From: Candidatus Pacearchaeota archaeon
Lineage (GTDB): Archaea > Nanobdellota > Nanobdellia > Pacearchaeales > GW2011-AR1
Direction of reading: 5' to 3'
NCBI GenBank assembly: GCA_016866975.1
Contig: VGKP01000020.1
Span: 1-10,879, forward strand
Length of the DNA: 10,879 nt
The notes under the pieces were generated by a model, which was not told the DNA's origin, ran no database searches, and was given only the letters and a program-made list of their open reading frames with translations. Made by a program: the position numbers and the translations under genes. Of the stretch, positions 1 to 10,879 are shown piece after piece (the stretch's first letter is position 1; every line of letters starts with the position of its first letter).

Positions 1-66
1 ATTATACGAAGATATATTCAACAACAGGGAAGAAGCGGTAAGCAGTTGAGATTAGATAACTTCTAG
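1..66 (+). CDS. tnpA: IS200/IS605-family Y1 (HUH) transposase, C-terminal fragment (5' partial, runs off the window)
   Basis: Frame +1 reads IIRRYIQQQGRSGKQLRLDNF-TAG. YIxxQ matches the catalytic-tyrosine helix at the C-terminus of Y1 transposases, and an IS200/IS605-type end hairpin follows immediately. Not in the ORF track because it is short and partial. Confidence 0.75.
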   Translation: MIRRYIQQQGRSGKQLRLDNF

Positions 67-98
67 ATGCCCCACGGTCTTGCCGTGGGGAGCTTCAC
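66..98 (+). mobile_element. IS200/IS605 right end: guide GATG, subterminal hairpin, cleavage tetranucleotide TCAC
   Basis: Stem CCCCACGG (70-77) / CCGTGGGG (83-90) with a TCTTG loop, preceded by GATG (66-69) and followed by AGCTTCAC (TCAC at 95-98). This is the same layout as the IS608 right end (GAAT-hairpin-TCAA). Confidence 0.8.
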
Positions 99-116
99 TT
101 TTGATCTAAAATTTTA

Positions 117-1322
117 TTACAAATATTGGTTAATCCTTTTTTGTTTTCCAAATTCTTTCAAGAGAATCGATTTATTGATGTAGTTTGAGATTGGCTGCTT
201 AAGCCTGGATTGAATATCATCAAAAGCCTCCTGCAGAGAGTTGAAAATCATGGGATTTATTGAGAAAGCCTCACGGCTGACTTGTCTCAAAATACCTACG
301 CCCAGAGGATCGGTATATTCTGGTCTTATTTCCCTAAAAACCAAGCACAGGGCTTGGCGTCTTATTCTCTCAAGATATTCTGTCAATGCAATGCGATTTG
401 CGTAATAGGCCCCTGTGACTGAATCTGCATATGTCTTCCTAGGGTAAAAATTTTCATAATCTGTCCAGATGCCCATGTTCTTAAGAGATATCTCTATCAC
501 TTCAAAACTCCATTTCTCAGGGAGAAGAAGGAACTCATAATGATTCCCAAGATATTCAGCATGAAAGAGCATAATGTTCGATATCTCAGGATATAATCTT
601 ATTCTTTTTAATTTTTCTTTGGATAGGGTGTCGTCCACTGCAGTGATGGACCATCTTGTAGGAACCAATTTACGGTTTTTCTTCTTTCCTAGAAGGCCGG
701 CTGAAAGTATTTTCATTATTGTAGACGTCTCGATATTTGCTTTTTCCAACTCAATCAGAGAAGAAACTGCTTTTGCGTCTGTGTCATTTACTAGATATTC
801 AACCTTTGGCCGAATCTTAGGATTTTCCTGAAGCCTTATCTTTTCTATCTCGGCAGCATGAGCAATCAATGGCGCATTTGGGGCTTGTTCATCCTGCTGC
901 CTGATAGGTTTCTTTAGGATAAATTCTGTAGAAATAGGCTTGTGAGTCATAGCCACTTCCTGCAATATTGAAAGGAACTTATTCTGAAGCTGATGAATGT
1001 TGCTTTGAGTCCTTCCGTAAATAAGCTTGTTCCTGAATGAAAGTATCTCAGGTATTGTGCGTTTTTGCTCATGCCAAATCTCAGGAGAAGATAGATATTT
1101 GGTTTCTCCATGCTCTTCTGGACTCAATATCCCAGTGTAGACGTTAGGATAATTCCATCGCCCTACGAAGATTTCGGGAGGGCTGGAGCCTGTAAACTCC
1201 TTAATCTCTTTTGCTTTACCAATGGAGAATACATGCTTATCGCATCCCTCTATGCCGCAAATTTTACATCCTAAGAAATTACGGATCTTATGAGTCAATT
1301 TCTCTGAAGATTTTTCGTCCAT
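117..1322 (-). CDS. nreA: Nre-family archaeal DNA repair protein (NreA), 401 aa
   Basis: Recognisable Nre motifs: SPPEIFVGRWNYPNV, GLLG...RKLVPTRWSITAVDD, GAYYANR, EIRPEY..PLGV. C-terminal PIP-like QKRINQYL and an N-terminal Cys cluster. Confidence 0.92.
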   Translation of the reverse strand: MDEKSSEKLTHKIRNFLGCKICGIEGCDKHVFSIGKAKEIKEFTGSSPPEIFVGRWNYPNVYTGILSPEEHGETKYLSSPEIWHEQKRTIPEILSFRNKLIYGRTQSNIHQLQNKFLSILQEVAMTHKPISTEFILKKPIRQQDEQAPNAPLIAHAAEIEKIRLQENPKIRPKVEYLVNDTDAKAVSSLIELEKANIETSTIMKILSAGLLGKKKNRKLVPTRWSITAVDDTLSKEKLKRIRLYPEISNIMLFHAEYLGNHYEFLLLPEKWSFEVIEISLKNMGIWTDYENFYPRKTYADSVTGAYYANRIALTEYLERIRRQALCLVFREIRPEYTDPLGVGILRQVSREAFSINPMIFNSLQEAFDDIQSRLKQPISNYINKSILLKEFGKQKRINQYL

Positions 1323-1354
1323 TCTTTATGAAAATAGATGAAGTATTTATGGAT

Positions 1355-1648
1355 TTATGTTATTTTTATACGTTCGATTGAAAGGATTTCTTTTTTTCTT
1401 TGAATGTAAAGGATAAACCCTGTGATAAGAGTAATAATTGCAACAAAAATTGCAAAAATGCCTATATATGCGAGATTTGAAGGAAATTGAGGGAGCTGAG
1501 CAATTTGCAAAAGCGCAAGTCCTAAAAGAAGAGAGGTGAGTGCGATATTGATATAGGCAAGAAAGGTACGCTCATTAGAAAGTAGCGTTCGTTCATCGGA
1601 AAGAAGGATGTTTTCTTTTTCTAGATTTTTTGAGTACCTCTTTACCAT
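1355..1648 (-). CDS. DUF202 (YidH-like) small membrane protein, ~97 aa; start revised from 1771 to 1648
   Basis: Signature ERTLLSNERTFLAYINIAL followed by two hydrophobic helices. ATG at 1648 lies 21 nt after a TTTATAAC box (1677-1670), the same spacing as at other genes here. Confidence 0.8.
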   Translation of the reverse strand: MVKRYSKNLEKENILLSDERTLLSNERTFLAYINIALTSLLLGLALLQIAQLPQFPSNLAYIGIFAIFVAIITLITGFILYIQRKKEILSIERIKIT

Positions 1649-1669
1649 ACTTTCAAAAGAAGGAAGAGA

Positions 1670-1677
1670 GTTATAAA
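1670..1677 (-). promoter_or_regulatory. Archaeal TATA box for the DUF202 gene
   Basis: TTTATAAC on the minus strand, 21 nt before ATG 1648, with purine-rich GGGAACA upstream. Confidence 0.55.
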
Positions 1678-1688
1678 TGTTCCCTTGC

Positions 1689-1813
1689 TTAGCGCTCAAA
1701 GATTTCTGCCTTTTCTTGAGGAAATACGGAAGGGCAGGAGCCTGAATCAGAGACAAGAGAGAGCTTGTCATTGGGGAGCATCTTGAGGAAAATATGCATA
1801 TTTTTTTCTTTAT
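1689..1813 (-). pseudogene. Possible orphaned 3' fragment of the Cys-rich exported protein gene
   Basis: Open frame KEKNMHIFLKMLPNDKLSLVSDSGSCPSVFPQEKAEIFER-TAA begins at the hairpin element boundary and stops 11 nt before the DUF202 TATA box. Assignment to the upstream gene is inference only. Confidence 0.3.
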
Positions 1814-1931
1814 GTCAAGGAACTTGACTAAAACTCCAGCTTTTAAGCTGGAGTTGTTCCTTGAGCATCCAAAAAAAGAGCGCCTGCATCAAACTGCGGC
1901 TTTTAAGCCGCAGTGGCGCATCGTTTTTTTG
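1814..1931. mobile_element. Non-coding double-hairpin element, putative non-autonomous IS200/IS605 derivative (PATE-like); right boundary uncertain (~1922-1931)
   Basis: Two related hairpins, AACTCCAGCTT-TT-AAGCTGGAGTT (1832-1855) and ACTGCGGCTT-TT-AAGCCGCAGT (1893-1914), each inside an outer stem after an 8-nt bulge. TTTAT (1809-1813) lies just left of it. It coincides with the truncation of the 139-aa ORF. Confidence 0.55.
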
Positions 1932-2322
1932 ATATTCCAGATAATTTTTCGATGTCGGTAAAGCTGTGCGTGAAGAGCGGAGAGGGATTGGAAATGCAGT
2001 CTTGTTGACGGGAAGGAGATGAACGTTGTGAGAGAGAGGATTCTGGAGAGAAAAGCTTTCTGCAAAGTTCAATCGTCTTGCCTCGGCAGTAGGATTCGCA
2101 GCGCCCGCGATTGTTCTGGCAGAACTGTTGGCAGTCTGCTTCTGAAGAGCAGAGTGAGCCGAGGCCTTGCTCTTGTGAAGTGGGCAGAGGGGGAGAACTA
2201 GATGTGCCGAGAGAATCTTCAGAGGACTTTGTTTGTGTGAGTTGCTTATAGGCGACGAAGGCAGCACCGGTTACAACTAGGGCAAAAACAATAATAGCAA
2301 GAATGGTCAATGGCTTAATCAT
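1903..2322 (-). pseudogene. Exported/membrane-anchored Cys-rich protein, apparently truncated by the hairpin element
   Basis: N-terminal hydrophobic helix, Ser/Pro linker, a six-Cys module (CSSEADCQQFCQNNRGRCESYCRGKTIELC), then the start of a further domain (CISNPSPLFTHSFTDIEKL). The stop TAA (1905-1903) is inside hairpin 2. ATGA overlap with the upstream gene. Confidence 0.6.
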
Positions 2323-2657
2323 TTTTTCTCCAGGAATGCGACCGCGAGCCCTGAGAGCCCAACGATTGCGTGCAGCGCTGTGTCAAGTGAATTAAATGCA
2401 TCAAGTCCTGCAAAGTCAGGGAAGAGCGCACCGAACAGAGCAAGATAGGTGAAAAATGCGCCATTGATAAGGGGTAAATTACTCCAGAATGGGCGGCGGT
2501 TCCAGTGAAAGAGAATAACAATGCCGAGAAGAACATGAAAAATCTTGTGCATCTATTCTGCGGTAAAACCCTTTGCTAGAATATCAGTAATAAGTGTTAT
2601 TGAGACAAGGAGAAATAAAATTCCGATGCCATGTGTATACCATCTTTTCAGGTCCAT
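2319..2657 (-). pseudogene. Small multi-pass membrane protein (C-terminal half DUF4383-like), 112 codons with one in-frame TAG at 2555-2553
   Basis: MDLKRWYTHGIGILFLLVSITLITDILAKGFTAE-TAG-MHKIFHVLLG...DTALHAIVGLSGLAVAFLEKK in one frame. ATG 2657 is 2 nt after the previous stop. The ORF track splits it into 2553..2738 and 2319..2552. Confidence 0.6.
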
Positions 2658-2659
2658 TC

Positions 2660-2857
2660 TTATCCTTTCAAATCTGAGATTCCTAAGAGGACAAAGAGCG
2701 CACCGATGGCCACTATGAACCAGAATAGACCGCCCCAAAAGACACTAATTGCTGCGGAGCTTAATCCAAGACTTGTGGATAATGGTGAATAAAATGCTAC
2801 AAGAATTGCGCCAATCACGAGAACCAATCCGACCAAGAGTTCAAGCCATTTATTCAT
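2660..2857 (-). CDS. Small two-helix membrane protein, 65 aa, function unknown
   Basis: Two hydrophobic segments with charged ends (MNKWLE..., ...GISDLKG). TTTATATA box 21 nt upstream. First gene of the minus-strand cluster. Confidence 0.75.
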   Translation of the reverse strand: MNKWLELLVGLVLVIGAILVAFYSPLSTSLGLSSAAISVFWGGLFWFIVAIGALFVLLGISDLKG

Positions 2858-2878
2858 ATCTCTGAGATGTCTGATGAC

Positions 2879-2886
2879 TATATAAA
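2879..2886 (-). promoter_or_regulatory. TATA box for the minus-strand membrane-protein cluster
   Basis: TTTATATA ending 21 nt before ATG 2857. Confidence 0.65.
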
Positions 2887-2956
2887 TATTTTGCTTTTTG
2901 GGCTAAATTAAAAAATTTTCCACTAAAAAATTTTTTAAACTTACTTGCCTCCCTGT

Positions 2957-2987
2957 GATTTGACATGGATAGCTTATTAGTCAAATC
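2957..2987. repeat. 8-bp inverted repeat with 15-nt spacer in the divergent intergenic region
   Basis: GATTTGAC (2957-2964) and GTCAAATC (2980-2987) are exact reverse complements. Confidence 0.5.
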
Positions 2988-2997
2988 CTTCTCAAGC

Positions 2998-3005
2998 TTT
3001 AAATA
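2998..3005 (+). promoter_or_regulatory. TATA box for the DHH / acyP-uppS operon
   Basis: TTTAAATA ending 21 nt before ATG 3027. Confidence 0.65.
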
Positions 3006-3026
3006 ACCTCTTTTTGTGGTATCTAT

Positions 3027-4073
3027 ATGTTGACGAAAAAACAAATGGCTGAATTAAAAGATCATCTAGAAAGAGCTCAAAATCCTTTGTTCCTTTATGA
3101 TAATGATGCTGATGGTCTTTGCAGCTATGTAATACTGAGAAGATGGATCGGGAGGGGCAAGGGAGTTGCTGTAAGAAGCTATCCTGAACTTGATGCCGGA
3201 TATGCAAGAAGAGTACAAGAATTGCAGGCAGATTATGTCTTCATATTAGATAAACCTTTAATATCACAAGCATTCATTGATGAACTAGATATGCTTAACA
3301 TACCTTGTGTCATAATAGATCATCATGATGTTGAGCAGAGTTTTGAAAAGAAATCAAAAAATCTAGCCATATACAATACTGCAAAAAATAAGGGAAAAAA
3401 TAAGAGTTTTGAGCCTGTGACATTTCACGTGTATCAGTTGACCCAGAGAAAAGAAGATATGTGGATAGCCATAATAGGTTGTGTCTCGGATCATTACCTT
3501 CCATCTTTTGCTGAGGAATTTAGTAAGAATTATCCTGAATTATGGGGAAATGTCAAAGAACCATTTGATGCCTACTATGGGACTGAAATTGGTAAAATAG
3601 CACAATCATTAGGTTTTGGCCTCAAAGATTCAATAAGTCATGTTGTTGCTATGCAGAATTTTCTGATTTCTTGCAAACATCCCAGTGATATCACTACAAT
3701 CCGAGACTCATGGGTATATAGCAACACGTATAAGGCAATAAAGGAAAGGTACGACAGAACTGTAAAGGAAGCTGAAAAAGAATTAGGTGATAGAATGATT
3801 TTTTTTACATATTCTGGAGAGACAAGCATGAGTGCAAGTCTTGCTAATCACCTTTGCTATAAACATCCTGATAAGGTGATAGTAGTGGCATATATGAAAG
3901 GTGAGATTTCAAACCTCTCACTAAGAGGGAAAAAGGTAAGAGTGTTGCTTGAGAAAGTCCTTAAGAAATTTCCTGGGGCAAGTGGAGGAGGACATGAAGA
4001 TGCCGTAGGAGCCAGAATAAAGACAAATGAGCTTGCAAGATTGAGGGAAAAAATTGAAGAGGAATTAAAATGA
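3027..4073 (+). CDS. DHH/DHHA1-family phosphoesterase (RecJ/NrnA-like superfamily), 348 aa
   Basis: Motifs DNDADG, ILD, IDHH, IGCVSD, and the DHHA1 signature SLRG...GGGHEDAVG. Substrate cannot be assigned from sequence alone. Confidence 0.88.
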   Translation: MLTKKQMAELKDHLERAQNPLFLYDNDADGLCSYVILRRWIGRGKGVAVRSYPELDAGYARRVQELQADYVFILDKPLISQAFIDELDMLNIPCVIIDHHDVEQSFEKKSKNLAIYNTAKNKGKNKSFEPVTFHVYQLTQRKEDMWIAIIGCVSDHYLPSFAEEFSKNYPELWGNVKEPFDAYYGTEIGKIAQSLGFGLKDSISHVVAMQNFLISCKHPSDITTIRDSWVYSNTYKAIKERYDRTVKEAEKELGDRMIFFTYSGETSMSASLANHLCYKHPDKVIVVAYMKGEISNLSLRGKKVRVLLEKVLKKFPGASGGGHEDAVGARIKTNELARLREKIEEELK

Positions 4074-5107
4074 GGCTTAAAGAGATTGAGATTCATGTTT
4101 ATGGAAGAGTACAGGGAGTGTTGTTCAGGGCGACAATACAGAGAGAAGCGCTCAAAAGAAACATAAATGGATTTGTAATGAATAGAGCGGATGGGAGCGT
4201 AGAAATAGTGGCCCAGGCAGGGAAAAAATCTTTGGAGAGTTTCCTGCAATGGATACAAGAAAGCCCAGGATTCAGCTCAGTTAAAGGATTATCATATCAT
4301 TGGAGAAAAATCGGAGAGAATTTCAAGACATTTGCAGTTATAAAAGACAAGCCTTTCTTTGCAGACCAAGCTAGAGGATTCTTCAATCTAGGAAGATCAT
4401 TGCTTGCACCCTCTGGGAAGATACCCTTACATATAGCTATAATACCTGATGGCAACAGAAGGTGGGCGAAGAAAAAAGGGAGGAGGCCTGAATTTGGACA
4501 TTATACTGCTGCCAGCTTCCAACATATACATGAGTTGTTTGAAGAAGCTAGACGACTTGGAGTAAAATATCTGACTTTGTGGGGATTTTCTACTGAAAAT
4601 TGGAAAAGAGACAGTAGAGAGACCAGGGCAATCTTTGATTTGTTATTACAAAATATTGAGAGATTCAAAGAAGAAGCTGAGAGGCAGCATATAAGATTCA
4701 AGCATATAGGTAGAAAAGACAGGCTCCCCAAAGATCTTGTAAAGACATTATCCGATCTTGAGAAAGAGACAGAGCATTATACTGAATTTAATGTACAGCT
4801 CTGCCTTGATTATGGGGGGAGAGATGAGATAATAAGAGCTGTCAATGGCGTCATCAAGAAAAGAGTAAAGAAAGTCAATGAAAAAGATTTCATGAGTTAT
4901 CTTGATTCTGCGGATATACCTGATATAGATCTTATAATAAGAACATCGGGAGAACAGAGACTAAGTGGATTCATGCCATTCCAGTCTGCTTATGCAGAGC
5001 TTTACTTCTGTGATGTCCATTTTCCAGACTTCACTCCAAGAGAATTAAGGAAAGCAGTAGAGGAGTATGGGAGGAGAAAGAGAACTTTTGGAGGAGGAGT
5101 CAGGTGA
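4070..5107 (+). CDS. uppS: Fusion of an N-terminal acylphosphatase domain (aa ~1-92) and a cis-prenyltransferase / polyprenyl diphosphate synthase UppS (aa ~118-345)
   Basis: AcyP motifs VYGRVQGVLFR and GFVMNRADGSVE. UppS motifs HIAIIPDGNRRWA, GH, FSTENWKR, YGGRDEI, DLIIRTSGEQRLSGF, YAELYF, FPDF and RKRTFGG. One uninterrupted frame. Confidence 0.92.
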   Translation: MRLKEIEIHVYGRVQGVLFRATIQREALKRNINGFVMNRADGSVEIVAQAGKKSLESFLQWIQESPGFSSVKGLSYHWRKIGENFKTFAVIKDKPFFADQARGFFNLGRSLLAPSGKIPLHIAIIPDGNRRWAKKKGRRPEFGHYTAASFQHIHELFEEARRLGVKYLTLWGFSTENWKRDSRETRAIFDLLLQNIERFKEEAERQHIRFKHIGRKDRLPKDLVKTLSDLEKETEHYTEFNVQLCLDYGGRDEIIRAVNGVIKKRVKKVNEKDFMSYLDSADIPDIDLIIRTSGEQRLSGFMPFQSAYAELYFCDVHFPDFTPRELRKAVEEYGRRKRTFGGGVR

Positions 5108-5196
5108 CTTTTAAACGACTGCAGTGTAAGCAGTATTGTTGTGTAGTCTTCTAATAGATAATCGCCTACAGGTAAAATGCAATTTCTATATCAAGA

Positions 5197-5204
5197 TTTA
5201 TATA
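5197..5204 (+). promoter_or_regulatory. TATA box for the deoxyhypusine synthase gene
   Basis: TTTATATA ending 21 nt before ATG 5226. Confidence 0.65.
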
Positions 5205-5225
5205 TTATCTTCTTTAAATAAATAG

Positions 5226-6212
5226 ATGGATAGTGAAAAGATAGCTAGAAAGAATCTTCTTAGAAAAAGCAAGGAAACAAAAGGGGTGCCCATCAGAGGA
5301 CATGATTTCAATGAGGGTCGCGATTATGGAAAGATAATAAACAGTTTTGCTACTACAGGCTTCCAAGCCACTTTTCTCTCCAGAGCAATAGAAATCACTA
5401 AGAAGATGATTGATGAGAATGCAACAATATTCCTAGGTTTTACGAGCAATATGGTAAGCTCTGGGCTGCGAGAAGTCTTGAGATATCTTGTTGAGCATAA
5501 GAAAGTAGATGTTGTAGTGACAACCGCGGGAGGTATCGAAGAAGATATAATAAAATGTCTAGGTAACTTCATGTTAGGAGATTTCAGGGCTTCCGGGAAA
5601 GAGCTTCGTAAAAAAGGGATAAATCGTATAGGCAATATATTTGCACCGAACAATAGGTATGTAGATTTTGAGAAATGGATGCAACCATTACTTGAAGAAG
5701 TGTATGAAATGCAGAAAAAAACAGGCAAAATTCCCTGTGGAAGCGATATCATCTGGAAGATGGGCGAGAAGATAGGTAATTCTGATAGCATATTATATTG
5801 GGCATGGAAAAACAAGATACCTGTCCATTGCCCCGCTTTAGGAGATGGGGCCTTGGGAGACAATATATATTTCTTCAGTTTCAAGCATCCCGATTTCAAG
5901 ATAGACTTAGTTGAAGACATAGCTAAGATGAATAATACAACTATTGGACTGAAAAAGACGGGATTGATTATACTTGGAAGCGGAGTAGTGAAACATGCTA
6001 TTCTGAATGCGAATATGCTTCGCAATGGCGCTGATTATGCAGTGTATATTAACACTGCGCAGGAATTTGATGGAAGTGATGCAGGTGCACTGCCTGAAGA
6101 AGCGGTATCTTGGGGGAAGATACTTCCAGGGGCGGAAAGTGTGAAGGTTTTTGCTGATGCGACTATTGTTTTTCCTCTTTTAGTTGCAGAGACTTTTGCT
6201 AAGAACAATTAA
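5226..6212 (+). CDS. dys: Deoxyhypusine synthase, 328 aa
   Basis: TGFQA, FLGFTSNMVSSGLRE, VTTAGGIEED, INRIGN, DGALGD, GSGVVKH, EFDGSDAGA and active-site EAVSWGK motifs. Confidence 0.96.
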   Translation: MDSEKIARKNLLRKSKETKGVPIRGHDFNEGRDYGKIINSFATTGFQATFLSRAIEITKKMIDENATIFLGFTSNMVSSGLREVLRYLVEHKKVDVVVTTAGGIEEDIIKCLGNFMLGDFRASGKELRKKGINRIGNIFAPNNRYVDFEKWMQPLLEEVYEMQKKTGKIPCGSDIIWKMGEKIGNSDSILYWAWKNKIPVHCPALGDGALGDNIYFFSFKHPDFKIDLVEDIAKMNNTTIGLKKTGLIILGSGVVKHAILNANMLRNGADYAVYINTAQEFDGSDAGALPEEAVSWGKILPGAESVKVFADATIVFPLLVAETFAKNN

Positions 6213-6242
6213 GATTAAAAAGTTGTTTTTCTTGAGGTTTTT

Positions 6243-7613
6243 ATGAAAGCTGAAGTTATTCAAGAGGGAATGATTGGACTGGAAATACATGTTTATTTGG
6301 TGACTAAGGAGAAGCTGTTTTGCAAATGCATTGCTTCTCGTGAAAAGGGATTGAAGGCAAATACAAACATATGCCCTATATGCACTGGATTGCCCGGGGC
6401 AAAACCGATGCTACCGAATAAAGTTGCTGTCGAGAAAGCTGTGCAGGTAGGATTGATGCTTGGCTGCAAAATAAACAATCATCTCATATGGCAAAGAAAA
6501 CATTATGACTGGCCAGACCTTCCTAAAGGATATCAAAATACATTATCCGGAAGCTTTGCTGTACCTGTCGGAGAAAAAGGAAAGTTTCACGGTATAACTA
6601 TCTCAAGCATGCATCTTGAAGAGGATCCTGCGTCTTGGGACCCTGAGACAGGGTGCGTGGATTACAATCGTTCTGGATTGCCTCTAGTGGAGATAATAAC
6701 TGCTCCAGATTTTTCTACCGCGGAAGAAGTCATAGACTGGCTGAAGAAATTGTTGCACGCTCTTGCATATCTCAAGGCTGCAGATACAAATGCAGGAATA
6801 AAAGTAGATGTTAATGTATCAGTACCAGGAATCAGCGAGAGAGTGGAAATTAAAAATATAAGCTCTTTGGAAAGCATAGGAAATGCAATAGATTATGAGA
6901 TAGAAAGGCAGAGAAAAGACAAATGCAAGGAGAAAGAGACAAGAAGATATGATTCTACAAGTGGTAAGACAGTCAAGATGAGGAGCAAGGAAGACGCAGA
7001 GGATTACAGGTTCTTGAGCGACCCTGACCTACAGGATATTATAATAGATCAGAAGATGATAAGCTTGATGAAAGAGAGCCTTCCCGAGGCACCTGAAATA
7101 AAACTTGAGAAATTGGTGAAAAAGTATAAGATTGATGAAGAGAATGCAAGTATATTGGCAAAACATATAGATATAGTTGAATTCTTTGAGAGAGTTGCGG
7201 ATAAGATAGATGCGAAGTTTGCTTTGCCTTGGGTGACTGTGGAATTGCTGCGCTTCTTGAATTATCATTCGACTACGCTTGATAAAGTGAATATTGACCC
7301 TGAACATTTTATCGCATTAATAATGCTTGTAAGGGATGGGAAAATAACACCGTTGAAAGGAAAAGAAATACTTAACCAATTCTATCCAAAAAGCTTCGTG
7401 CCTAACGCGGGAGAGGGGAAAATAAGCGATGTTAAGGAATTGGAGAAGGTTGCTCGCGATGTTGTTGCTAAGAATGCGAAGGCAGCTGCGGATTATAAGG
7501 CAGGAGAGAATAAGTCATTTGACTTTTTAATGGGCGAGATAATGAAAGCAACGCAGAAACGCGCGGATTTTAAGATTGCGCGGAATGTTTTGGAGAAAGT
7601 TTTGAAGAACTAG
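6243..7613 (+). CDS. gatB: Asp-tRNA(Asn)/Glu-tRNA(Gln) amidotransferase subunit B, 456 aa
   Basis: GLEIH, KLFCKC, CPICTGLPG, RKHY..PDLPKGYQ, HLEED, DYNRSGLPLVEI, VEIKN, MRSKE.A.DYR and a C-terminal Yqey-like tail. The length leaves no room for the GatE insertion domain. Confidence 0.94.
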   Translation: MKAEVIQEGMIGLEIHVYLVTKEKLFCKCIASREKGLKANTNICPICTGLPGAKPMLPNKVAVEKAVQVGLMLGCKINNHLIWQRKHYDWPDLPKGYQNTLSGSFAVPVGEKGKFHGITISSMHLEEDPASWDPETGCVDYNRSGLPLVEIITAPDFSTAEEVIDWLKKLLHALAYLKAADTNAGIKVDVNVSVPGISERVEIKNISSLESIGNAIDYEIERQRKDKCKEKETRRYDSTSGKTVKMRSKEDAEDYRFLSDPDLQDIIIDQKMISLMKESLPEAPEIKLEKLVKKYKIDEENASILAKHIDIVEFFERVADKIDAKFALPWVTVELLRFLNYHSTTLDKVNIDPEHFIALIMLVRDGKITPLKGKEILNQFYPKSFVPNAGEGKISDVKELEKVARDVVAKNAKAAADYKAGENKSFDFLMGEIMKATQKRADFKIARNVLEKVLKN

Positions 7614-7616
7614 AAG

Positions 7617-8378
7617 CTATTTTTTAGAGACCTTCCACATTTGATTAAAGATTTCCTTGAACATTCCTGCAAACATCGAGTCTTTGATTAAAAAGCCGCG
7701 AGGGATATTTTTGCTTTTTGCGGTATGCTGAAGAACCACGAAATCTTTGTGGACTATGAATTCACCTTCGCTTTGCTTTTCAATAAACTTGCATTCTATT
7801 TTTCCTATTTTTTTTCTTAATTTTGCCTCTTTTTCTGCACCTATTGGAAGAATCATCTTTGAGCTTATGCCTTTTTTTACTCTTTGCTTGTGTATTTCTT
7901 CCAAATAAAAAGTTGTGAGGTCTTCAAAGCTTTCAACTGAGCCGGTATATGCATCCATATTATCTCCTTTTTCCATTAAATTGTTGAGTTCCAGCCACAT
8001 TGACTTGATTCCTTTTATTCCTTCGAAATATTTATAGTCTGAAATTGTTTCGTTGTTTTTTGGGACTTTTTTCAGGCTTTGAATTGCAATATTTATCTCC
8101 TCTTCTGTTTTTTCTAATTCTTCTTTTTTTGAAAGAAAGATATTACGCAGTGTTTCTGGCGCATTTATTCTGTAAATCTTTGCGTTTTTGTAGAGCTTGA
8201 AGCTTACAACTCCTTTTTCAACCAAAGAATTTAGCACTTCATAGATATGCGAGCTTGGGATGCCTGTTTTTTCGCATAATCTGCCTGTTTTTGACTCTCC
8301 AAGCTCGGCTAGAATGCTATATACTTCTGACTCGTTTAATGTAAACCCCGCTTTTCTCAAATTTGATATGATATCCAT
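7617..8378 (-). CDS. TrmB-family transcriptional regulator (N-terminal winged HTH plus effector-binding domain), 253 aa
   Basis: GFTLNESEVYSIL.ELG....GRLCEKTGIPSSHIYEVLNSLVEKG HTH, a coiled linker, YFEGIKGIKSM, and a C-terminal F...FNQMWK typical of the family. Confidence 0.88.
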   Translation of the reverse strand: MDIISNLRKAGFTLNESEVYSILAELGESKTGRLCEKTGIPSSHIYEVLNSLVEKGVVSFKLYKNAKIYRINAPETLRNIFLSKKEELEKTEEEINIAIQSLKKVPKNNETISDYKYFEGIKGIKSMWLELNNLMEKGDNMDAYTGSVESFEDLTTFYLEEIHKQRVKKGISSKMILPIGAEKEAKLRKKIGKIECKFIEKQSEGEFIVHKDFVVLQHTAKSKNIPRGFLIKDSMFAGMFKEIFNQMWKVSKK

Positions 8379-8438
8379 ACTACTATATGGATATAGTAGA
8401 TAATTTATAAATATATCTTTTTGGCGCGGAAAAGATAT
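8371..8438. promoter_or_regulatory. Divergent promoter: palindromic TATA flanked by inverted repeats (putative operators)
   Basis: ATTTATAAAT (8403-8412) is self-complementary. Inverted repeats: CTACTATAT-GG-ATATAGTAG (8380-8399), ATATCCATA-N6-TATGGATAT (8371-8394) and ATATCTTTT-N8-AAAAGATAT (8413-8438). Confidence 0.7.
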
Positions 8439-8982
8439 GGCTGAAAAAACAACTGATTTGAATTCAGATGAGCTGCTGAAATTTATATTAAAGGCTCACA
8501 GGAATACATATGCTGCACTGAAGGAAGTAAGGCAGAAGAACAGATTCGATATTCCTATATTGCCCGGACATAAGGATTATGATTTTGCCGAAGGGAAATG
8601 GAGGTACCACGATTCTTATTCAGGAAGACTTTGGGCGCCTGGAAGAGAAGTTATTTTTTTGGATGAAAAGCCTGTCTGGTGCATGAGTTATCAGGGAATG
8701 CCCTGCAAATTTTCTCCTGAGTGCAAGAATAATCAGAGTTCTGAGGCAAGAATTTTACCTATGGAATTTTATGATGAAAATGTTTTTCCTTTTCTTAAAA
8801 GAGCTTTGATGAGAGCTGATGAGAGCATGCCTTTTAGAGGGCCTCCAAGATTTAATGAAGAAGAATTTGAATATGGATTTGAGATGCAGGGAAATTACGA
8901 GTATTTTACAGGCAGGGAATCTGTTGTGTATTTTGGAAGAGAAGTGTTTTTTCAGAATGTTATGGGCAGCATTATAAGATAA
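8437..8982 (+). CDS. DUF5680-like protein, 181 aa
   Basis: Pattern WRYHDSY.G...PGREVI....KPVWCMSYQG...FLKRAL......PFRGP..F....FEY.....G....FTGRE.V matches my recollection of DUF5680. Confidence 0.7.
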   Translation: MAEKTTDLNSDELLKFILKAHRNTYAALKEVRQKNRFDIPILPGHKDYDFAEGKWRYHDSYSGRLWAPGREVIFLDEKPVWCMSYQGMPCKFSPECKNNQSSEARILPMEFYDENVFPFLKRALMRADESMPFRGPPRFNEEEFEYGFEMQGNYEYFTGRESVVYFGREVFFQNVMGSIIR

Positions 8983-8983
8983 A

Positions 8984-9082
8984 TTAGAATAGAGGAAGAA
9001 GAATTTGGATGAGTTCTGCAACAGCTCCTAGGATAAAAAACAAGGCGAGAATTATGAGAAGTATTGCGGAAATTACTTTCTT
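8984..9082 (-). pseudogene. Start-less hydrophobic frame resembling the C-terminal helix of the neighbouring permease
   Basis: KKVISAILLIILALFFILGAVAELIQILLPLF-TAA. 15/23 ungapped identities to ILLALLALFFIGGVIAEIISIFL at the end of the 10316 ORF. No ATG/GTG/TTG before the in-frame TGA at 9091-9089. Confidence 0.45.
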
Positions 9083-10271
9083 AATCTTTCAAATGTTTTT
9101 CCTCTATCTTTATCAGGAGAGCTAGGAAAATAACTGTTGCACCTAGAATGTAAAGTGCGTACTGCAAGTTCCAATTCACAAGGAATCCCATTATAATATT
9201 ATTAAGAGTCATTGCAAGTCTGTAAATCATAGAAACTGAAGATATTACTGTCGCCCTTTTTGTTGATGGTATATATTTATGCATATAGTTGAAATAAAGT
9301 CTCTTTCTGGAAAGGCCGAAGCCGGCAATGACCATCATCGACACAATAGCTAAAACTGGAGAATAGGAAGCTCCTAAGATTATGAAAAATACTCCTGGGA
9401 CAAGGGCAGATAATAAGAGGTATCTTGATTTTCCCCCTATAGCTTTCTCAAGGAATGAGAATGAGTTAAGGACTATTATCTGGGCAATGACTAAAAATGC
9501 ATGGATCAAGCCAAAATATGCAATAGAGACACCGAGCTCCTGCAGTTTATACTGGTAAACCCATATTACGAAGAACATTAAAGCTGAGACTATAGTGGCA
9601 TCTATCGCCATTATCTTCAATATCTTATGATTTGCAAAAAAGGATATTCCTTTCCTGAATATATCGATGTAATGCTGATTTCTAGTTGATGCTCTACCTA
9701 TCTTGGGCTCTTTAACTGAGAGGATGATAAAGAACGAGATAAGGATTGGGACAATCATAAGGCCAAATGCCCATCTCACTCCTAGGAAATAGGCTATGAA
9801 ACCACCAATTGGAGCAGATATTAGAAGACCCAACATATTAAGGCTGTCTAACCTACTAAGCAATTTTTTTGATTCTTTCTCTCTCTTTAATTGCCTTAAA
9901 GTGTCGTAAAAAAGAGACTCATCTGCCCCAGATATAAGGGCAAGGCCAAGTCCGAGTATTATTTCACCCAAAGCAAAAATGTAAAACGACGGATATAATA
10001 TATATAATAAAAAGCCAAAAGCAGAAACAAGACTTCCTATAGCAATACTGTTCTTCCTCCCGTATTTATCCGCGATTACTCCTGTAGGTGCCTCAAAGAG
10101 AAGGGCACTTGCAGTGAATATTGCTTGCAGTATCATTATCTGATAGAATGGTATCTTTCCCCATTCTATGAAAAAGGGTATAAGGACCGCAGAGATAAAA
10201 TGCAAGTGATGTATAAATGTGAATAGGTAAAGCTTCCAAATATTGCTTTCGTAGTTATTTTTGTTGTTCAT
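9081..10271 (-). CDS. Major facilitator superfamily transporter, 396 aa
   Basis: About 12 hydrophobic segments, MFS motif A-like EAPTGVIADKYGRK, SGADESLFYDTL, and IPSTKRATVIS in the C-terminal half. Confidence 0.9.
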   Translation of the reverse strand: MNNKNNYESNIWKLYLFTFIHHLHFISAVLIPFFIEWGKIPFYQIMILQAIFTASALLFEAPTGVIADKYGRKNSIAIGSLVSAFGFLLYILYPSFYIFALGEIILGLGLALISGADESLFYDTLRQLKREKESKKLLSRLDSLNMLGLLISAPIGGFIAYFLGVRWAFGLMIVPILISFFIILSVKEPKIGRASTRNQHYIDIFRKGISFFANHKILKIMAIDATIVSALMFFVIWVYQYKLQELGVSIAYFGLIHAFLVIAQIIVLNSFSFLEKAIGGKSRYLLLSALVPGVFFIILGASYSPVLAIVSMMVIAGFGLSRKRLYFNYMHKYIPSTKRATVISSVSMIYRLAMTLNNIIMGFLVNWNLQYALYILGATVIFLALLIKIEEKHLKD

Positions 10272-10315
10272 CTAAATAGTGAATTTTTCTGTTTTTTAAT
10301 CATTTTCTACAAAAA

Positions 10316-10879
10316 TTATCGGAGGAAAATTGATATTATCTCAGCGATGACCCCTCCGATAAAAAATAATGCTAGGAGTGCCAGCAAAATTCTATTTGAA
10401 GGCATGCTGAAACTTGGGGTCAAGTCGCCGTGTTGTTTTGCCCTGCGAACCATTGCAAGGATTAAAAGGGCTGTAAGACCTCCTGAAATAACTCCTCCTA
10501 TGCCTAAAATAGTGGTGAATGTTGCTTGCTTGAATATCATAAATAGAAGATAAAGAAAGACAGGAGTCAATATAGTTATGGACCAGGCAAATAGTCTTGG
10601 TTTCTTATAATCAAGGTGAATAGTATCTATCATAGAGGTTGAAAGAGAGAGATATGCAGTGAACATCGTGATCATACCTAACAAGATAAAAGGCTTGCCT
10701 AAGGCTAATGTAGCAATCTCAGGTGTATCTAGTCCTTTGTATCCAACTACAACTATGGTGAAAATCACATAAATTGTGAAAGCTGTAAAATACGAAATCA
10801 AGATAACTCTTTTCATTTTTTTTCTTTCTCCACTCAATATTGACCTTACTTCAGGCATTGCAGTGAAGGCAAGAAACGC
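10316..10879 (-). CDS. Aromatic amino acid permease-type (Mtr/TyrP-like, APC superfamily) transporter, 5' partial
   Basis: The frame stays open to the window edge (AFLAFTAMPEV...), so the listed Met at 10858 is internal. Multiple TM helices, with AFTAMPEV, ITMFTAYLSLS and GIGGVISGG segments. Confidence 0.72.
   Translation of the reverse strand, partial: AFLAFTAMPEVRSILSGERKKMKRVILISYFTAFTIYVIFTIVVVGYKGLDTPEIATLALGKPFILLGMITMFTAYLSLSTSMIDTIHLDYKKPRLFAWSITILTPVFLYLLFMIFKQATFTTILGIGGVISGGLTALLILAMVRRAKQHGDLTPSFSMPSNRILLALLALFFIGGVIAEIISIFLR

Follow-up and report, generated by a model that had tools for sequence, protein, structure and literature searches.

An apparently uncharacterised fusion of acylphosphatase and cis-prenyltransferase that recurs in DPANN archaea and CPR bacteria

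The fused gene and its neighbours

The stretch of DNA considered here, called the window throughout, comprises 10,879 nucleotides (positions 1 to 10,879, forward strand) of contig VGKP01000020.1 from a Candidatus Pacearchaeota archaeon (GenBank assembly GCA_016866975.1). Our subject is a single gene within it that joins an acylphosphatase (AcyP) to a cis-prenyltransferase of the UppS type through a short helix (Table 1). The initial annotation, made by a model from the letters of the DNA, had described a full AcyP domain and a complete cis-prenyltransferase on one chain, and the open reading frame (ORF), Pfam and NCBIfam all bear this out. The Pfam model for acylphosphatase (PF00708) matches residues 7-89 with an E-value of 3.8e-22 (78.8 bits against a cut-off of 22.5), covering positions 2-84 of its 85, and the prenyltransferase model (PF01255) matches residues 125-341 at 7e-70 (235 bits against a cut-off of 27) over its full length, 1-219. 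TIGR00055, the NCBIfam equivalog for uppS, gives 209 bits where 109.55 would suffice. Each half, taken separately, is an unremarkable member of its own family.

The catalytic residues tell much the same story, with one exception. The AcyP loop reads G12-R-V-Q-G-V-L-F-R20, in line with the family pattern V-x-G-x-V-Q-G-V-x-F-R, and Asn38 lies within G-F-V-M-N; the two residues correspond to Arg20 and Asn38, under the same numbers, in the AcyP of Pyrococcus horikoshii, where the former binds phosphate and the latter orients water (PMC8147672). Nothing in the sequence of the AcyP domain departs from the canonical form or hints at a changed specificity. The UppS half adds FSTENWKR (residues 173-180) and IRTSGEQRLS (290-299) to the motif in Table 1. 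The claim that both motif sets were intact holds for the AcyP Arg and Asn and for these main UppS motifs; one departure lies at the RXG motif near the C terminus, a motif of importance in homodimeric cis-prenyltransferases, where Thr339 stands in place of Arg. An Arg occupies this position in 142 of 157 fused homologues (introduced below). F340-G341 are present, the neighbouring Arg338 and Arg336 are kept, and the same Thr is found in a relative at 85% identity (P0002).

Table 1. Positions in the window of the fused gene, its parts and the gene upstream (pLDDT, predicted local distance difference test)
Feature	Position	Strand	Basis or remark
Fused AcyP-helix-UppS gene	4070..5107	+	345 aa + stop; single uninterrupted ORF, both Pfam domains
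Acylphosphatase domain, residues 3-92	4076..4345	+	PF00708; PDB AcyP chains; pLDDT 86-96
AcyP phosphate loop, G12..R20	4103-4129	+	Arg20 codon 4127-4129; Asn38 codon 4181-4183
Amphipathic, cationic inter-domain helix, residues 94-113	4349..4408	+	AlphaFold2 prediction; conservation in homologues
Cis-prenyltransferase (UppS) domain, residues 119-341	4424..5092	+	PF01255, TIGR00055, PDB matches
UppS motif DGNRRWA, residues 127-133	4448-4468	+	Read in translation
Thr339 at the RXG position	5084-5086 (codon ACT)	+	Sequence compared with 157 fused homologues
DHH/DHHA1 (short RecJ-like) gene, upstream	3027..4073	+	Pfam DHH, DHHA1; weak RecJ-family NCBIfam matches

AlphaFold2, run with a 38-row alignment, predicts both domains confidently (mean pLDDT 89.9), and leaves their relative orientation undefined (predicted template modelling score, pTM, 0.67). 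Between them it places a helix at residues 96-112, at a low pLDDT of 56-71. The initial annotation had called this linker possibly amphipathic, and across the family it is: the mean hydrophobic moment is 0.50, against 0.31 in shuffled sequences. The family consensus is [FY]-h-h-D-[KQ]-A-[KR]-S-h-h-N-L-G-K-x-h-h, with Asp99 kept in 149/157 and Leu107 in 144/157 of the fused homologues. Going by this pattern of conservation, we take the inter-domain segment not to be a mere spacer.

Immediately upstream, the DHH/DHHA1 gene ends four nucleotides into the fused gene (ATGA, 4070-4073). The same pair with the same overlap occurs in six other archaeal carriers (G304, G305, G189, G241, G250 and G743), and no DHH/DHHA1 gene lies upstream of the fused gene in G332, a carrier from the bacterial Candidate Phyla Radiation (CPR). 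We considered the DHH/DHHA1 protein as a functional partner, for example as a hydrolase of pyrophosphate (PPi) or prenyl diphosphate, and did not adopt the idea: the protein is RecJ-like and accompanies the fusion only in archaeal carriers. The gene order is treated here as synteny by descent and plays no part in the mechanism we propose. Further upstream, positions 1815-3044 have a G+C content of 0.44-0.46, compared with about 0.37, and hold only short ORFs on the minus strand, several of which resemble small membrane proteins (1903-2322, 2319-2552 with a weak DUF4383 match, and 2660-2857); we found no Rfam family and no tandem repeat in this region. Rfam and tRNA scans of the whole window likewise returned no matches.

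Recurrence, spread and origin of the fusion

Had the fusion been a one-off, the initial annotation would have counted that against it. Instead, we gathered 157 fused homologues, in Pacearchaeota/Woesearchaeota-like archaea and in Dojkabacteria of the CPR, from independently assembled data at NCBI, JGI, ENA and Logan; they fall into at least 25 clusters at 50% identity. Of these proteins, 156/157 keep Arg20 and 155/157 keep Asn38, on a par with the UppS catalytic columns, which are at least 96% conserved, as are positions G12, V14, Q15 and G16 of the AcyP loop. The best 120 matches among 5.8 billion proteins (52-85% identity) all have both Pfam domains, and the named ones among them are called 'polyprenyl diphosphate synthase [Nanoarchaeota archaeon]'. 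We also searched 1.8 billion cluster representatives exhaustively and without a profile; about 25 clusters (at 50% identity) match over residues 3-341, the most distant at 31% identity. Named fused members include two proteins of Candidatus Dojkabacteria, which belong to the CPR, and at least two fused loci were among the matches listed in a contig scan, one on a Pacearchaeota and one on a Woesearchaeota contig. A search of the ESM Atlas with residues 1-116 returned plain acylphosphatases only.

Within sequenced genomes the fusion is sparse. Among 301 species genomes of the phylum, the full-length fusion was found only in the window's own family (f1), in the window's genome (G000), G189 and G241, and in split form in G250. 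A second sample, of 41 f1 genomes, added G716, G720 and G743 as carriers, and among 401 Patescibacteria genomes only G332 has the fusion. (The tallies over the 301 and 401 genomes, like the kinase and BacA profile of f1 given below, include the unpublished genomes G243, G244 and G459, on which none of our specific claims depends; 'not found' here and throughout is limited to the genomes we searched, several of them incomplete.) On contig 3 of G250, an AcyP of 112 aa (6002-6340) and a UppS of 239 aa (6362-7081) lie adjacent in the same frame, divided by one in-frame TAA within the linker. The existence of both states lends something to the idea that the fusion is an assembly or annotation artefact, two adjacent genes joined through a lost stop or frameshift. 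That 157 independently assembled homologues share one open frame and the same architecture, with a conserved linker sequence between the domains, makes this very unlikely, close to negligible.

Three of the fused proteins are oddities worth recording. In P0184 and P0204, both metagenomic, the UppS active site is degenerate (L-G-T-R-R-W-A and R-G-S-Y-I-W-A, respectively, replacing DGNRRWA), P0204 has lost the AcyP Arg and Asn as well, and both may be non-catalytic paralogues. P0146, from a Logan assembly, has Trp at invariant Gly sites (for example W-R-V-Q-W and D-W-N-R-R), as expected if an organism that reads TGA as Gly (code 25, Gracilibacteria/SR1) had been translated with TGA as Trp; its sequence hints at a further CPR lineage carrying the fusion.

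Full-text literature searches turned up no paper linking AcyP with a cis-prenyltransferase or UppS, in keeping with the initial annotation, which knew of no characterised fusion of the two, and public records label the fused proteins simply UppS. The fusion is recurrent, then, and apparently uncharacterised.

Where did it come from? In a tree of UppS domains the fused sequences cluster, with 13 label changes compared with 38.5 for shuffled labels; a smaller IQ-TREE run gave 9 compared with 24.7, and its supported branches require no more than one origin. The fused sequences sit among CPR sequences, and the usual stand-alone cis-prenyltransferases of the window's phylum group with those of Aigarchaeota and Bathyarchaeia. 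These trees are weakly resolved; they would fit one fusion event followed by exchange between CPR bacteria and DPANN archaea, and the window's archaeal family apparently acquired the fused gene whole, by transfer.

Away from the fusion, the two genes do not keep company. We inspected about 78 stand-alone UppS loci, drawn from a wide range of organisms, and saw no AcyP ORF within 6 kb of any of them, and the stand-alone UppS genes nested among fused ones in the tree (G300, G360, G384 and G333) have no AcyP nearby either. We had considered a wider AcyP-UppS neighbourhood and rejected it, since none was seen at these loci or in f1. Close UppS relatives do have other fusion partners: isopentenyl diphosphate isomerase (IDI), isopentenyl phosphate kinase, a trans-prenyl synthase (C-terminal to UppS) and an SQS_PSY domain, which resembles squalene/phytoene synthases (P0256, P0189, P0190, P0207, P0267, P0236 and P0250; P0256 scores above the IDI equivalog cut-off). 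Several CPR UppS ORFs, P0153, P0180 and P0230 among them, run to 404-468 aa with an unassigned C-terminal extension of about 200 aa.

The resident acylphosphatase and the carrier-lipid cycle

Nearly every genome of f1 encodes a separate AcyP of about 95 aa (36/40 and 10/12 genomes in two samples). It lies at a locus of its own, beside neither UppS nor the DHH gene, and shares only 19-34% identity with the fused AcyP domain. We read the catalytic positions of this resident copy in 48 genomes, 40 of them non-carriers and eight carriers of the fused or split gene. Among the non-carriers, Arg is kept in 38 (lost in two) and Asn in 39; among the carriers, Arg is kept in one (lost in seven) and Asn in two (lost in six). 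A naive Fisher test on the loss of Arg gives p = 3.7e-6 for genomes that are kin. The non-carriers include 29 genomes with no UppS that we could find; completeness reaches at least 92% in six of these.

In the carriers the ORFs stay open, and Arg has been replaced by K, N, H, K, Q, N or E, differences that suggest several lineages of decay. The window's genome is typical in part: its resident AcyP (contig 6, 18756-19004; L003 1486-1761) is an intact 91-aa ORF with a degenerate loop, G-S-L-Q-S-L-F-F-K, and a retained Asn. G250, which has the split form, has lost both residues, and G720 is the sole carrier whose resident copy keeps both. In two further carriers, G305 and G332, the fused copy is the only AcyP found. 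G714 is one of the two non-carriers whose copy has lost Arg. Scored as such and only 78% complete, it has a resident AcyP (contig 12, 10594-10872; L167) without Arg and Asn that groups with the carriers' copies in the tree; we predict that a fused gene exists in this genome and is unassembled. The retained, catalytically dead paralogues may have a non-catalytic role.

Such decay is what redundancy predicts, and we read it as a sign that whatever keeps AcyP in these genomes is now provided by an active fused domain. The fused copy is probably active and appears to have assumed the generic work of an acylphosphatase. Because canonical AcyP is also kept in genomes where no UppS was found, this generic activity would be independent of UppS. 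A fused domain that covers it makes a dedicated new role less necessary, although the domain may have an additional role beside it.

What of the lipid carrier itself? The initial annotation had supposed a reduced archaeon, and the window's genome is that of a DPANN archaeon of 0.81 Mb, 89% complete, with one cis-prenyltransferase only. It encodes BacA/UppP, a PAP2 protein and a family I pyrophosphatase. Its contig 11 carries a cluster of glycosylation genes: STT3, Glycos_transf_4, a Wzx-like flippase, GT2 and a second STT3 (STT3/AglB). A trans-prenyl synthase, HMG-CoA reductase, mevalonate kinase and a CTP_transf_1 (dolichol-kinase-like) gene were not found in this 89% complete genome, whose sole GHMP kinase belongs to a sugar-nucleotide enzyme. 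(The latter, on contig 17 at L115 1281-3461, is a 726-aa ORF with NTP_transferase, CBS and GHMP-kinase domains, probably a fused sugar-1-kinase/nucleotidyltransferase, and adjoins genes for a DegT aminotransferase and an epimerase/dehydratase.)

Whether carriers lack the known polyprenyl diphosphate phosphatases or a pyrophosphatase had been proposed as a check on the fusion, and they do not lack them in any way that tracks it. Every one of the eight carrier genomes tested has BacA/UppP, as do non-carrier kin, which leaves no known phosphatase to be replaced; we rejected AcyP as a stand-in for a missing polyprenyl diphosphate phosphatase on these grounds. Pyrophosphatase PF00719 was found in 3/8 carriers tested, a patchy distribution unrelated to the fusion, and AcyP as a stand-in for a missing pyrophosphatase was rejected too. 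BacA is encoded by 58/301 genomes of the phylum sample, compared with 11/14 in f1, and a dolichol/polyprenol-kinase-like gene in 87/301, compared with 0/14. With BacA common and the kinase-like gene not found, f1 seems to run a bacterial-style cycle between diphosphate and monophosphate carrier. Five f1 genomes that are 91-98% complete (G031, G218, G237, G249 and G291) have BacA/UppP and no cis-prenyltransferase that we could find, which suggests that they recycle carrier lipid made elsewhere and not by themselves.

Readings of the fusion and comparison with known systems

The reading we favour, tentatively and at a little short of an even chance, is the plainest: two independent enzymes on one membrane-proximal chain. 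The C-terminal domain would be a homodimer-type, long-chain cis-prenyltransferase making polyprenyl diphosphate, the precursor of the lipid carrier for this genome's glycosylation genes. The N-terminal domain would be a canonical, competent AcyP doing the same job as the separate AcyP of related genomes, and the amphipathic helix would probably hold the protein at the membrane surface. Transfer of the fused gene would have brought a second active AcyP, after which the resident copy, now redundant, could lose its catalytic Arg and Asn. Both domains would be active in this account, with no chemical coupling or channelling between them; the fusion would give co-expression and location, and might persist simply because undoing a fusion is hard.

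Several things sit awkwardly with two uncoupled enzymes. The helix between the domains is conserved (Asp99 at 95%), and the split halves in G250 remain adjacent. The fusion lasts down to about 31-40% identity and across two domains of life, and long-lived fusions usually join functionally linked proteins. Every other identifiable fusion partner of close UppS relatives is an isoprenoid-pathway enzyme. The contrast between carriers and non-carriers, for its part, is not phylogenetically independent (the AcyP tree gives one independent pair on well-supported branches), and a dual role for the domain, generic activity plus dephosphorylation of the UppS product, predicts the same decay of the resident copy.

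It is this second activity that gives the strongest competitor its appeal. The helix-held AcyP might cleave the terminal phosphate of newly made polyprenyl diphosphate at the cytoplasmic surface of the membrane; the monophosphate would go to the initiating phosphoglycosyl transferase, and BacA, acting outside, would only recycle released diphosphate. The domain may retain generic acylphosphatase activity too. In Escherichia coli the active sites of BacA and the PAP2 enzymes face the periplasm, no cytoplasmic-side enzyme that dephosphorylates de novo undecaprenyl diphosphate (C55-PP) is known from any organism, and such an enzyme would need specificity for C55-PP (PMC4641660), which a tether to UppS could confer. 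The window's genome has users of the monophosphate in one cluster (Glycos_transf_4, the Wzx-like flippase, GT2 and two STT3/AglB), and the kinase route to the monophosphate seems unavailable in f1, where BacA is common. The other partners seen fused to UppS all work on isoprenoid phosphates, the helix is both conserved and amphipathic, and the fusion has been maintained across Archaea and CPR bacteria. Yet the established substrates of acylphosphatases are carboxyl-phosphate anhydrides, beside which older literature reportedly describes a weak nucleoside di- and triphosphatase activity. No family-specific change is seen near the AcyP active site, and AlphaFold2 shows no confident packing of the domains on each other, given its pTM and the low pLDDT of the linker. 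Canonical stand-alone AcyP is present in at least 28 related genomes in which no UppS was found, so that two functions would be needed, and no AcyP adjoins the stand-alone UppS genes that are nested in the fused clade. We consider product processing unlikely on balance, if attractive. Also unlikely is the bolder claim that the fused AcyP is the long-sought cytoplasmic phosphatase that makes the monophosphate carrier, its tether to UppS sparing farnesyl and isopentenyl diphosphate, and that the stand-alone AcyPs of these reduced organisms might do the same.

A regulatory or by-product module appears improbable to us. Here the AcyP domain would bind or hydrolyse a small phosphorylated metabolite (acetyl phosphate, 1,3-bisphosphoglycerate, carbamoyl phosphate, inorganic phosphate or PPi), either relieving product inhibition or tuning the activity or membrane association of UppS to the energy state of the cell. 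Conservation of the phosphate-binding loop equals that of the UppS active site, the conserved helix could relay a signal, and the hydrogenase-maturation protein HypF offers an analogy, with an AcyP domain that handles a small acyl phosphate for the domain that follows. But the water-placing Asn38 is conserved too, pointing to turnover over mere binding; the presence of a pyrophosphatase is not anticorrelated with the fusion; we know of no case in which acyl phosphates regulate UppS; and parsimony speaks against a further role when the domain already covers the generic AcyP job.

If two plain enzymes on one chain turn out to be the truth, the fusion becomes a curiosity of streamlined genomes, and likely also a marker of gene exchange between CPR and DPANN. 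The fused protein, small and equipped with a soluble domain, makes two old questions testable: how polyprenyl diphosphate is dephosphorylated in the cytoplasm, and what acylphosphatases are for. On the first, a phosphatase-type domain joined to UppS is the most direct natural candidate so far. On the second, acylphosphatases are ubiquitous and their physiological role is unsettled. The decay of resident AcyP in genomes that carry the fused or split gene is new, and amounts to a natural replacement experiment in which the catalytic residues of the carriers' own AcyP have decayed; it speaks for AcyP activity being under selection even in 0.5-Mb genomes.

How does the fused protein compare with what is already known? 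BacA/UppP and PAP2 enzymes would share the reaction from polyprenyl diphosphate to monophosphate if the AcyP domain processed the UppS product, but they are integral membrane proteins of unrelated folds with outward-facing sites (PMC4641660), and they co-occur with the fusion. The other UppS fusions likewise carry one extra enzyme domain per chain; their partners have known isoprenoid roles, whereas AcyP has none. To our knowledge, HypF (4g9i, 3vth) is the only characterised multidomain protein with an AcyP domain, which is N-terminal there as well, within a larger enzyme, and matches residues 4-92 weakly. The partner domains and pathway of HypF, [NiFe]-hydrogenase maturation, are unrelated, and Pfam finds neither its zinc-finger nor its YrdC domain in the fused protein. 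On the AcyP side are the stand-alone acylphosphatases of P. horikoshii (1v3z/1w2i), Sulfolobus solfataricus (2bjd) and Bacillus subtilis (2fhm), with E-values of about 1e-11 to 1e-13; the PDB chains 1v3z and 2w4d cover residues 3-92 at about 2e-13. These proteins share the phosphate loop with the fused domain and differ from it in being free-standing. A PDB sequence search found no solved chain spanning both the AcyP and UppS parts. On the UppS side are the homodimer-type long-chain cis-prenyltransferases, UppS and decaprenyl diphosphate synthases (7cpn, 5kh2, 4q9m, 1f75 and E. coli 1jp3), which match residues 103-343, the best being 7cpn at 2.1e-50; over residues 113-343 the alignment runs end to end, with every catalytic motif represented. 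To their plan the fused protein adds an N-terminal AcyP of 92 aa and a helix, and it puts Thr in place of the usual Arg before F-G.

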